From Escherichia coli (lineage in GTDB: Bacteria > Pseudomonadota > Gammaproteobacteria > Enterobacterales > Enterobacteriaceae), in NCBI RefSeq assembly GCF_003334335.1, contig NZ_QOWQ01000036.1: 45,604 nucleotides of DNA. One strand, written 5' to 3'. A program made the position numbers and the translations under genes. The notes under the pieces were generated by a model. It had not been told where the DNA came from and searched no databases. It was given only the letters and a program-made list of their open reading frames with translations. This document shows, piece by piece, positions 3,534-44,315 of the stretch. How positions within the stretch are numbered: the stretch's first letter is position 1; every line of letters begins with the position of its first letter.

Positions 3534-4799
3534 TTACGGTTTGAAGTCCAATGGCGCGTTTTTGAACACTTCATATACTGCCTGGCTTGGTGGTTTCGGG
3601 ATCTTCGCAAGTTTAGCTGCTGCCAACGCAGCCTGACAAAGTGCGGGATCGCCACCTTCAGGTTTGATATCCAGTAACATACCATCGGGTGCCAGTTTTA
3701 TGCGCAGCGTACAGGTTTTGCCTGCATAGGACGATGCGTCATAGAACTTACTTTCGATAGCAGATTTAATCTGCCCGGCATAGTTATTGATATCGGCCCC
3801 TGATGCGCCATTGTTTTTAGTATTACCACTCCCGGCAGGCGAAGCATTGTTCCCTTTCGCCCCTCCCCCCGTTTTCGGTGCATTCTTACCAGAGCTTAGC
3901 TCACCGAAAATATCATCTGCCTCTGCGGCCGCTTTTGCTGCAGCGGCTTTTTCAGCTGCAGCTTTTGCCGCTGCCGCTTTTTTGTCTGCGGCGGCTTTTT
4001 CTGCCGCTGCTTTCTTATCAGCTGCTGCCTTTTCAGCAGCCGCTTTTTCTGCTGCTTTTTTGTCGGCTGCAGCTTTCTCTGCTGCCGCTTTCTTATCAGC
4101 TGCAGCCTTTTCAGCAGCCGCTTTCTTCTCAGCTTCTGCTTTGGCTTTTTCAGCAGCTTCAGTTGCCGCTTTCTTTCTTGCTTCAGCTGCAGCTGCTTCT
4201 GCCGCTTCCGCTTTCTTCTTCAGTGCCGCAGCGGCTGCCTCGGCTTTTTTCTGCGCTTCGGCTGCGGCTTTGGCGGCTTCTGCTTCTGCTTTTTTCTTTG
4301 CGTCTGCAGCCGCTTTCTTCGCTGCTTCTTCCGCAGCTTTAGCATCTGCTTCGGCCTTCGCTTTAGCATCTGCCGCCGCTTTCGCTGCCGCCTCTTCAGC
4401 TTGCTTCTGCTTTAACTCGGCCTGTTTTGCGGCTTCTTCAGCCTGCTTTTTCTGCTCCTGAGCCGCTAACCGCTCTTTCTCAAGTTGCTTCAGGCGTTCC
4501 TGTTCAGCCGCTTGTTTCTCACGCAGTTCTTCAGCAGCCTGCTGTTCCTTCATCTTGCGCTGTTCATCAGAACGCTTCGCGCTTGATTCCTGGCTTTGCA
4601 TGCGTTTGTACTGCTCAACTACCGCACCTGAATCAACCATGACAGCGTCGATGGACGAACCACCGCCGCCTCCGGCTGAAGCTTCTATATTCTCATCGAA
4701 CGAACTCCAGATCAGCGCCGCAAATAAGATGACATGCAGCACTGCTGAAATAATTATCGCCCGCTTGAGCTTGTCGTTTTGTTCGGTTGCCTTTGACAC
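3534..4799 (-). CDS. tolA: Tol-Pal system protein TolA
   Basis: 421 aa; N-terminal TM helix, long Ala/Lys/Glu-rich central helix, C-terminal domain. Confidence 0.95.
   Translation of the reverse strand: MSKATEQNDKLKRAIIISAVLHVILFAALIWSSFDENIEASAGGGGGSSIDAVMVDSGAVVEQYKRMQSQESSAKRSDEQRKMKEQQAAEELREKQAAEQERLKQLEKERLAAQEQKKQAEEAAKQAELKQKQAEEAAAKAAADAKAKAEADAKAAEEAAKKAAADAKKKAEAEAAKAAAEAQKKAEAAAAALKKKAEAAEAAAAEARKKAATEAAEKAKAEAEKKAAAEKAAADKKAAAEKAAADKKAAEKAAAEKAAADKKAAAEKAAADKKAAAAKAAAEKAAAAKAAAEADDIFGELSSGKNAPKTGGGAKGNNASPAGSGNTKNNGASGADINNYAGQIKSAIESKFYDASSYAGKTCTLRIKLAPDGMLLDIKPEGGDPALCQAALAAAKLAKIPKPPSQAVYEVFKNAPLDFKP
3900..4420. repeat. Low-complexity GCn/AAA-rich coding repeats (TolA domain II)
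   Basis: Reiterated gctgc(c/a)gc...ttt units encoding AAEKAAADKKAAAEK-type repeats; produces spurious ORFs on the opposite strand. Confidence 0.8.
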
Positions 4800-18127: not shown

Positions 18128-18210
18128 GTGTTCTGTCCATCCTTCAGTAATCGTTATCTTTTAAACCGTAGACCGAATATTTCGTATCGCTTCCGGGCAT
18201 TGTCGGTCAC

Positions 18211-18380
18211 CCGTAGGCCTGATAAGACACGTTAACCGTCACATCAGGCATCGCTTGTCGGATGCGGCGCTAGCGCCTTATCCGACCTACATTGGTGGTC
18301 CCGTAGGCCTGATAAGACGCGTCAGCGTCGCATCAGGCTTCAATTGCCGGAGAAGGCGATAATGCCTTATCCGGTCTACA
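18211..18380. repeat. REP/BIME cluster in the sucB-sucC intergenic region
   Basis: Several inverted copies of the gcctgatgcgacgc / gccttatccggcctac REP motif. Confidence 0.8.
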
Positions 18381-42287: not shown

Positions 42288-43049
42288 CTATTCAAACGTG
42301 AAATCAATAAGTTCATCAGGGACATCGCAAACAATATGAAGACGGATTTCTTCTCTGCCGTGACTCTTTTCACTCATTGCGTAACTGTCATGCTCTGGAT
42401 TATTTAATTCTTTCAGCGGAAATTTTTCCTCAAAGGCTTTATTTAGCCGCCCCTGGTTTCCTTTTACCGCGAATAAATAATCACCTCCCTGTTTTTGTAT
42501 CTTCTCTGCAATATCTTTCTGGCAACCCATCGCATCAGTTGTGATGATTTTTCCTTTAATATCCAGCATGTTAAGAAGTTCAGGGATAGCTGTGATCTCA
42601 TTGGATTTCTTATCCGTCTTGATCTGCCCGATGACCAGACTGTGCATTGTTGAGAACGCACTAATGACATGAATCGCTCCCCTGCGGCGACTCTTGTCAT
42701 AAGAGTGCCGGAGCGTTTTTCCATCAATTGCAATGACGTCTTTATCATTTGATGAATGGCAATCACGCATCCAGTTAATAAAGCACTCGTGAAATTTTGC
42801 AGGACTGATACAGGATACAACTCTGGCAATAGTATCGTGAACAGGAATACCATTTTCAAAATCACCATATTGCTTCAAGAAATCGAGATGTGTTTCCCCG
42901 AAATCCTCTATATCTTCCCAACTTTCTGCACCAGAAATAACGGCAAAAATAGTCAATAGTAGGATGCCTGACAATTTATGCTCTACTTTCCAGGCTTATC
43001 TGTAATCGGGAATAATAGAAATATGTTCCATCAATTTTTTAAGTTCCAT
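42288..43049 (-). pseudogene. ybfD: H-repeat-associated transposase remnant, copy 1 (ybfD-like), in-frame TAA at codon 18 and 3'-truncated
   Basis: [17 protein letters not shown]-stop(42996-42998)[10 protein letters not shown]... then 228 codons; ends ...[12 protein letters not shown] where full-length ORF-H continues W-K-G-L. Confidence 0.75.
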
Positions 43050-43174
43050 TTGTTCACCTTATTTATGTAAGGAGTATTTGATCATGTATAAGCTATGAAA
43101 AACAGCTTTAGGTAATAAGGAATATCTCAATTTTTAAACATAAAATGCGAATTATTTAGTACAAAAAAGTAGCG

Positions 43175-43429
43175 TTACGTGATCTTTCCCTGGGATACAA
43201 CTCTGGCAATGGTATCGTGAACAGGAATACCATTTTCAAAATCACCATATTGCTTCAAAAAATCGAGATGTGTTTCCCCGAAATCCTCTATATCTTCCCA
43301 ACCTTCTGCACCAGAAATAACGGCACAAATAGTCAACAGTAGAATATCTGACAATTTATGCACCACTTTCCAGGCTTGTCTGTAATCGGGTGTAATAGAA
43401 ATATGTTCCATCAATTTTTTAAGTTCCAT
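43175..43429 (-). pseudogene. H-repeat transposase N-terminal fragment, copy 2 (84 codons)
   Basis: [22 protein letters not shown]...IARVVS then out-of-family QGKIT-stop created by the repeat junction. Confidence 0.8.
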
Positions 43430-43554
43430 TTGTTCACCTTATTTATGTAAGGAGTATTTGATCATGTATAAGCTATGAAAAACAGCTTTAGGTAATAAGG
43501 AATATCTCAATTTTTAAACATAAAATGCGAATTATTTAGTACAAAAAAGTAGCG

Positions 43555-43809
43555 TTACGTGATCTTTCCCTGGGATACAACTCTGGCAATGGTATCGTGA
43601 ACAGGAATACCATTTTCAAAATCACCATATTGCTTCAAAAAATCGAGATGTGTTTCCCCAAAATCCTCTATATCTTCCCAACCTTCTGCACCAGAAATAA
43701 CGGCACAAATAGTCAACAGTAGAATATCCGATAATTTATGTTCCACTTTCCAGGTTTGTCTGTAATCGGGGATAATAGAAATATGTTCCATCAATTTTTT
43801 AAGTTCCAT
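43555..43809 (-). pseudogene. H-repeat transposase N-terminal fragment, copy 3 (84 codons)
   Basis: Near-identical to copy 2 (I13, T19, E23 variants); same junction-derived C-terminus. Confidence 0.8.
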
Positions 43810-43951
43810 TTTGTTCTCCTTAATTAGGTAAGGAGTATTTGATCATGTATAAGCAATAAAAAACAGCTTCAGGTAATAAGGAATATCTCAATTTTTAAAC
43901 ATAAAATGCGAATTATTTAGTGCAAAAAGTGAACTTTTGATGATCTTTCCC

Positions 43952-44315
43952 TGGCCGTTGACTCGATTGCCGTAGCTCGAACGCAAGCACTCTTATCATT
44001 CAATGCCATATTGTTCAAAATATTAAAAACATTATCTTCGCATTTTTTGCAAATTTATATTTGCCCGAGTATAAATGCTCCGATATCTCTACGGATATAA
44101 TTTTTGTCAGTGCAGAATTCAATTGCCAATCTAACAGCGTCTTGCCCCCCTCTTAACTGTAATACTCTGGCAGATGAAATCCTTTTCAAGGAATTGCGAT
44201 CATCAAGTAAGCGAAATAATTCATCATCATTTAGTTTCTTACATTTATTATATAAACCATACTCTTTACTTGCCTTTCTTTTCTGGTATGTATTTGACAT
44301 TGCAGGAACCTCCAT
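43952..44315 (-). pseudogene. yibA-like HEAT-repeat (PBS-lyase type) gene remnant
   Basis: MSNTYQKRKASKEYGLYN...AFILGQI then TAA (44055-44057); homology continues in frame (ICKKCEDNVFNILNNMALNDKSACVRATAIESTA) to ~43953 where the H-rpt terminus begins. Confidence 0.7.

Follow-up and report, generated by a model that had tools for sequence, protein, structure and literature searches.

TolA is the inner-membrane-anchored arm of the Tol–Pal system that spans the periplasm, and part of its gene consists of strongly repetitive DNA. Does the length of this arm differ among strains of Escherichia coli, by what steps does it change, and what does the change mean for the cell? The question is raised by a 45,604-nt stretch of E. 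coli DNA (contig NZ_QOWQ01000036.1, assembly GCF_003334335.1), called the window below, in which a sequence-only reading had marked positions 3900–4420 as DNA prone to expansion and contraction. The marked stretch encodes the C-terminal half of domain II, the central, helical part of TolA. A 207-nt tract inside it is very probably an in-frame variable-number tandem repeat (VNTR), in which whole-unit changes, made mainly by RecA-dependent recombination and in some cases by slippage, give rise to a family of functional TolA lengths. Repeat variation in tolA has been known since 2012; the observation is correct and is not new.

The tolA Gene and the Layout of Its Product

The open reading frame (ORF) at 3534–4799 on the minus strand starts with GTG and encodes 421 amino acids, and on sequence grounds its product is TolA. 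Against NCBIfam models it reaches 554 bits with the equivalog NF007065 (cut-off 213) and 308 bits with TIGR02794 (cut-off 59), and a full-length TolA chain in the PDB, 9k49_H, aligns with it across residues 1–421. K-12-derived and many other strains among 5,426 complete E. coli genomes carry exactly this DNA (100% identity over 1266 nt), and the gene is annotated there as "cell envelope integrity protein TolA"; this is the K-12-type allele with 13 repeat units. The gene lies in a minus-strand cluster with the order ybgC–tolQ–tolR–tolA–tolB–pal–cpoB, and the products of all six neighbors (YbgC, TolQ, TolR, TolB, Pal, and CpoB) are above their NCBIfam equivalog cut-offs. Three tRNA genes (Lys-TTT, Val-TAC, and Lys-TTT) are found downstream of cpoB at 221–587 on the minus strand.

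The window protein has the three-domain layout of TolA, i.e., a membrane helix with the S-H-L-S residues, a helical domain II, and a globular domain III. Domain I, an N-terminal helix with the membrane anchor (amino acids 4–34; 4698–4790, minus strand; a helix in the AF2 model), carries S18, H22, L29, and S33, which make up the SHLS motor-binding motif (PMC10666116). Domain II is a long alpha-helical region (amino acids 61–286; 3942–4619, minus strand) modeled by AF2 as helices 61–230 and 233–286, and it has been described as an extended helix or as a helical hairpin (PMC10666116, PMC8928145). The AF2 run on an alignment of 18 alleles has low confidence, with a pTM of 0.26 and a pLDDT of 47–62 in the repeat tract, and the single helix break at residues 231–232 belongs to this low-confidence model. 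Domain III, the C-terminal globular domain, occupies amino acids 324–421 (3537–3830, minus strand), which match PDB 1S62, a TolA protein; 1TOL and 2X9A match slightly longer stretches.

A Short Tandem Array Inside a Longer Low-Complexity Stretch

Positions 3900–4420 correspond to amino acids 127–300, and the 174 codons include 91 for Ala, 39 for Lys, 25 for Glu, and 9 for Asp, so that these four residues account for 94% of the segment. Tandem Repeats Finder (TRF) places overlapping arrays with periods of 15, 30, 33, 45, and 78 nt at 3922–4142. The best row, with a score of 255, is a 78-nt higher-order repeat of five units at 3971–4129 (minus strand) that is present in two copies with 88% matches. 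An array with a period of 24 nt lies at 4322–4386. At a TRF score of at least 80, just two further places in the 45.6-kb window yield a row.

Repetition was separated from composition by comparing the autocorrelation of three segments with 1000 codon shuffles that preserved composition. The tract at 3921–4127 stands well above its shuffles at lags of 15 (z = +5.7), 33 (z = +5.0), and 78 (z = +6.1). The segment at 4128–4421 has a weak excess at a lag of 24 only (z = +3.6), and the Gln/Glu/Arg-rich part upstream of that segment gives no autocorrelation signal relative to codon shuffles. Because the excess over shuffles is confined to 3921–4127, the upstream 300 nt of the marked stretch reflect low-complexity composition for the most part, not a true array. 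The sequence-only reading had taken the whole of about 520 bp as repetitive; the biased composition does run through all of it, but the unstable part comes down to about 200 nt plus one minor site.

The core tract (3921–4127, minus strand) is 207 nt long and encodes amino acids 225–293 as 13 imperfect units of 15 or 18 nt, with start-to-start spacings of 15 and 18 nt in the repeat search. At the protein level the unit is K1–2 A2–4 (E/D/A). Units 1–7 read KKAAAE, KAAAD, KKAAAE, KAAAD, KKAAE, KAAAE, and KAAAD, and units 8–13 read KKAAAE, KAAAD, KKAAAA, KAAAE, KAAAA, and KAAAE. Head-to-tail units beyond what composition would give are thus found in the tract by TRF, by the 13 parsed units, and by z values of 5–6. 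The dominant residue period is 5.3 amino acids. A heptad-repeat coiled coil was considered and rejected, as the autocorrelation at a lag of 21 does not exceed the shuffle mean in any of the three segments (z = −2.1, −0.8, and −0.2). The heptad-like repeats of the sequence-only reading therefore give way to a unit of five or six residues.

Length Variation Among E. coli Genomes

The 5,426 complete E. coli genomes were searched three times, with the window allele, the longest allele of the first sample, and the shortest allele as queries. From each search 60 records were sampled evenly down the ranking, which gave a total of 177 full-length rows. The length of 1266 nt is found in 119 of the 177 rows (67%), and the remainder include 16 further lengths, all in frame, that range between 1185 and 1344 nt (394–447 amino acids). 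The most frequent of these are 1311 nt (16 rows), 1299 nt (8), 1290 and 1251 nt (5 each), 1185 nt (4), and 1275 and 1215 nt (3 each); 1221, 1233, 1224, and 1281 nt occur in two rows each, and 1296, 1263, 1344, 1218, and 1260 nt in one row each. In all, 58 rows differ from 1266 nt, 57 of them by a multiple of three, and 176 of the 177 lengths are in frame. The gene is annotated as an intact coding sequence in each of the 17 in-frame variant alleles that were fetched (17/17).

The sequence-only prediction of tolA length variation thus proved correct: the gene had been expected to differ in length among strains, and the opposite outcome, a single length among homologs, is not what the genomes hold. 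Across 18 alleles (the window allele and the 17 variants), the unit count runs from 10 to 18, and strains differ in copy number by whole, in-frame units, as in a VNTR.

The length alleles are widely shared. The 16-unit allele of 1311 nt is present in about 10% of genomes, and 519 genomes are at least 99% identical to it. Since length alleles are common to many genomes per lineage, the locus appears fairly stable, rather than hypervariable, on epidemiological time scales. Genomes labeled O157:H7 have three lengths, namely 1185 nt (Sakai and ATCC 35150), 1215 nt (Z869), and 1275 nt (SS17), which equal 11, 13, and 17 units in the fetched alleles; the 17-unit allele was taken from 7386Nal, a strain of that same marker lineage.

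A few records stand apart. One of 1265 nt (NZ_OZ489144.2, isolate NCTC_86) has lost one G from a run of six at 3865–3870 and is flagged as a frameshifted pseudogene. This run sits in the glycine-rich linker after domain II, outside the repeats, and its shortening may reflect either a sequencing error in the homopolymer or genuine inactivation of the gene. Two of about 5,430 tolA matches are on records classed as plasmids, and in genome CAVP773 the gene runs across the start of the record.

Position and Nature of the Indels

The 18 alleles were compared in a protein alignment and in pairwise DNA alignments. Every indel falls in domain II, between amino acids 143 and 262. No residue varies in domain I, in the first 90 positions of domain II, in the glycine-rich linker, or in domain III. 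Except for one 24-nt site, all indels are confined to a zone at 4014–4217 (minus strand; amino acids 195–262) that comprises units 1–7 and degenerate units upstream of them. The last six units (3921–4016, minus strand; amino acids 262–293) are identical in the unit lists of 18 of 18 alleles; residues 280–313 have been named as the CpoB site (PMC8928145).

The simple indels measure +15, −15, +30, −33, +33 (twice), −45, +45, +78, −81, −48, −42, −6, and +24 nt. Combinations of 15- and 18-nt units account for most of these sizes, and direct repeats of 5–98 nt flank all of the indels. In-frame indels built from the repeat unit had been anticipated from the letters, and this expectation is borne out by the 57 in-frame lengths among the 58 variant rows, by the prevalence of 15- and 18-nt sums, and by the position of the changes within the repeat region.

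Six alleles (+30, −33, −45, +78, −48, and −42) differ from the window allele by one repeat-flanked indel and by no point change in 1.2 kb, which indicates that these indels preceded any point substitution in that 1.2 kb. One of them, from strain C9, is an exact 78-nt tandem duplication within 3971–4129 in a gene that is otherwise the same as the window allele. Recurrence is seen in two +33 alleles, which have their insertions at separate positions and on separate backgrounds of single-nucleotide polymorphisms, and in the three lengths found among genomes labeled O157:H7.

Three further alleles (L004, L009, and L012, two of them of the O157:H7 lineage) show a composite change in which a unique 16-amino-acid segment has been replaced by canonical repeat units. 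The replaced segment, KKAATEAAEKAKAEAE, is at 4128–4175 in the window (amino acids 209–224), directly upstream of unit 1. These composite alleles are not accounted for by a single slippage event, and the replacements suggest, from the aligned sequences, that the array can spread upstream by conversion.

The exceptional 24-nt site, at 4322–4386 on the minus strand (TRF period 24), is a minor variable site with an 8-amino-acid repeat, ADAKAKAE. Strain GPEC606 has an exact 24-nt tandem duplication there after amino acid 143 (about 4348–4371, with a slide of 35 nt), and about 205 of 5,425 genomes (about 4%) align without gaps to the duplicated form. The site is 75 residues upstream of the core tract and outside the repeats that have been described.

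Agreement with Earlier Work and the Proposed Mechanism

The tolA repeats were studied by Zhou, Michiels, and Aertsen (2012, PLoS One 7:e47766; PMC3477136), who counted 13 imperfect repeats in MG1655, each 15 or 18 bp long, and by PCR found 8–16 repeats among 234 isolates, with the 13-repeat allele in 66%. In a clonal population, contractions arose at a frequency of 6.9e-5 in a RecA-dependent manner; the frequency was 15% of that value in recA, rose 3.3-fold in uvrD, and was not affected by mutS (PMC3477136). A deletion of five units was the predominant laboratory contraction, some deletions reached into the degenerate upstream units, and expansions were not recovered in the selection (PMC3477136). 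The recombinational instability that had been proposed from the sequence is thereby documented by experiment. The genome comparison agrees with that work in the share of the 13-unit allele (67% versus 66%), the 78-nt step, the upstream deletions, and the constancy of the last units. By the present count, 17- and 18-unit alleles go beyond the published range of 8–16. A separate 24-nt duplication site is added to the known tract, with no difference in kind. The 2012 work is still cited, and a survey paper on the E. coli tolA repeat tract by Zhou et al. appeared in the same year (Res Microbiol 163:316). The TolA proteins of S. Typhi and S. Typhimurium reportedly also differ in repeat number.

In the proposed mechanism, units would misalign and whole units would be lost or gained, with the reading frame always kept. 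The main route would be RecA-dependent unequal homologous recombination, for which the 78-nt higher-order repeat would offer the longest near-identical homology. That homology, with its 88% matches, fits both the predominance of five-unit changes and the dependence on RecA. A minor route may be replication slippage at short direct repeats, and the events flanked by 5–12 nt of identity are compatible with it. The resulting TolA products would be alike except in one respect, the length of the Ala/Lys/Glu helix that lies between the membrane anchor and the C-terminal domain.

These features resemble those of phase-variable loci with simple-sequence repeats, for example in Neisseria and Haemophilus, in which repeat-mediated, reversible mutation also occurs at high frequency in a surface-related gene, and "hypermutable contingency loci" is the term that Zhou et al. 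themselves used (PMC3477136). There are differences. The tolA units are multiples of 3 nt, and a change in their number alters the size of a protein that stays functional, with no on/off state. Furthermore, the main published pathway for tolA is RecA-dependent recombination, whereas the simple-sequence contingency loci change by slippage of units of 1–8 nt. An on/off phase-variable locus was accordingly rejected as a description of tolA, given units of 15, 18, and 24 nt, 176 of 177 lengths in frame, and a sole frameshift outside the repeats.

Another parallel is TonB, a homologous force transducer whose domain II, with its Glu-Pro and Lys-Pro repeats, is repetitive, of low complexity, and periplasm spanning, like that of TolA; the length of the TonB middle domain varies between species (PMC10666116, PMC12204202). 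The TonB domain is a polyproline II helix and the TolA domain an alpha helix, and there is no sequence similarity between them.

Consequences of TolA Length

A change in how far TolA spans the periplasm, as the sequence-only reading put forward, would be a reasonable consequence of such variation. At 1.5 Å per residue, the natural range of 53 residues would correspond to a straight helix of about 80 Å. In a helical hairpin, which domain II possibly is, the effect of an indel on length would be halved. The published AlphaFold hairpin model measures 220 Å, compared with 250–300 Å for the periplasm (PMC8928145). Each of the engineered alleles, with 2–39 units, complements the deletion of tolA at least partly (PMC3477136). 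High salt at low pH is tolerated best with 6–13 units (PMC3477136). TolA length has also been linked in published work to bile-salt tolerance and phage entry. Such copy-number phenotypes may arise because helix length alters the reach or the stiffness of TolA, or perhaps the presentation of domain III. TolA illustrates that a bacterium can alter the length of an envelope-spanning protein without inactivating that protein.

The strongest competing reading accepts the polymorphism as real and holds that it is functionally neutral within the natural range, with domain II as a tolerant spacer whose length drifts through repeat instability and is not tuned by adaptation. This reading is a credible one, though it is somewhat more likely to be wrong than right. 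The dominance of 1266 nt (67%) across diverse hosts and the way in which length alleles track lineages are in line with it, as are the full restoration of SDS and osmotic tolerance by variants with 6–39 units (PMC3477136) and the partial function that remains when a TonB sequence replaces domain II (PMC10666116). However, deoxycholate tolerance increases with copy number, with plating efficiency spanning four orders of magnitude over the range from 2 to 39 units, while plating of phage fd is maximal at 13 units (PMC3477136). In the natural alleles, the in-frame bias of the variant rows and the constant last six units are evidence of selection on the protein.

The converse reading goes further and takes the lengths to be lineage-specific adaptations; examples would be the 16-unit 1311-nt allele and the three lengths fixed in O157:H7 sublineages, and the 24-nt site would be a second point of adjustment. 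It is plausible but unlikely. If the lengths were adaptive, they could adjust how far the TolA arm reaches or how stiff it is, with a trade-off between bile tolerance and susceptibility to colicins and filamentous phages that depend on TolA.

Origin of the Length Classes

Whole-unit change within the tract, the preferred reading, has also to be set against the import of diverged tolA alleles between strains by recombination as the main source of length differences. Many variants do have 14–30 point differences from the window allele in addition to their indels, and the composite replacements in three alleles are also in its favor. The six alleles with a single repeat-flanked indel and no point change, including the exact 78-nt duplication, speak against it, and the same type of event appears in clonal laboratory cultures (PMC3477136). 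Import as the main source is accordingly improbable. Assembly artefacts, i.e., collapse or expansion of repeats that are prone to misassembly, have the frameshifted record with the 1-nt loss from the G run on their side, but as the source of the length classes they can be set aside almost entirely, given that the tract of about 200 nt is below read length, that all lengths but one are multiples of 3, that lengths recur in independent assemblies of related strains (four rows at 1185 nt and 16 at 1311 nt), and that the published size variation was measured by PCR (PMC3477136).

Antisense Open Reading Frames over the Repeats

Two long plus-strand ORFs overlap the repetitive stretch, and the sequence-only reading had explained both as by-products of the repeats. 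For the first, at 3878–4342 (154 amino acids, rich in Leu, Gln, and Pro), the substitution pattern settles the matter. In that frame, 23 of 25 natural substitutions are nonsynonymous, and the ORF is rejected as a gene and regarded as spurious. The second, at 3787–4461 (224 amino acids, rich in Ala, Phe, and Ser), is most likely spurious as well, and for this ORF the earlier explanation is very probably right.

Codon composition alone goes far toward producing such frames. When the codons of the tolA stretch are shuffled, two of the three antisense frames contain just 1.5–3 stops in 678 nt, as compared with 14 stops in the densest frame of a tolB control. Given that the shuffled antisense frames are nearly free of stops, long antisense ORFs follow from a composition of GCN, AAR, and GAR codons. 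Neither plus-strand ORF matches an NCBIfam family, and in the RefSeq records inspected tolA alone is annotated there, with neither ORF recorded.

The idea that 3787–4461 is a genuine gene overlapping tolA, with an Ala/Phe/Ser-rich product, draws on a frame that is open for 675 nt and on natural substitutions that are mostly synonymous in it (27 synonymous and 3 nonsynonymous). Its wobble positions, however, coincide with those of tolA, and for this reason 27 of 30 synonymous changes would be expected anyway. With nearly stop-free shuffles and neither a family match nor a RefSeq annotation to set beside this, an overlapping gene is scarcely believable.

Other Repeats in the Window

Two repeats are found elsewhere in the window. 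At 42813–43954, a 380-nt tandem repeat is present in three copies with 95% identity. Within it, minus-strand ORFs of 84 amino acids recur and are followed by a longer ORF of 228 amino acids with the same sequence; these ORFs presumably resemble N-terminal fragments of an H-repeat/ISAs1-family transposase. At 18210–18380, an 89-nt repeat (GCCTGATAAGAC...CTTATCCGACCTAC) occurs in about two copies with 79% matches, and from its sequence it looks like REP/BIME extragenic palindromes.
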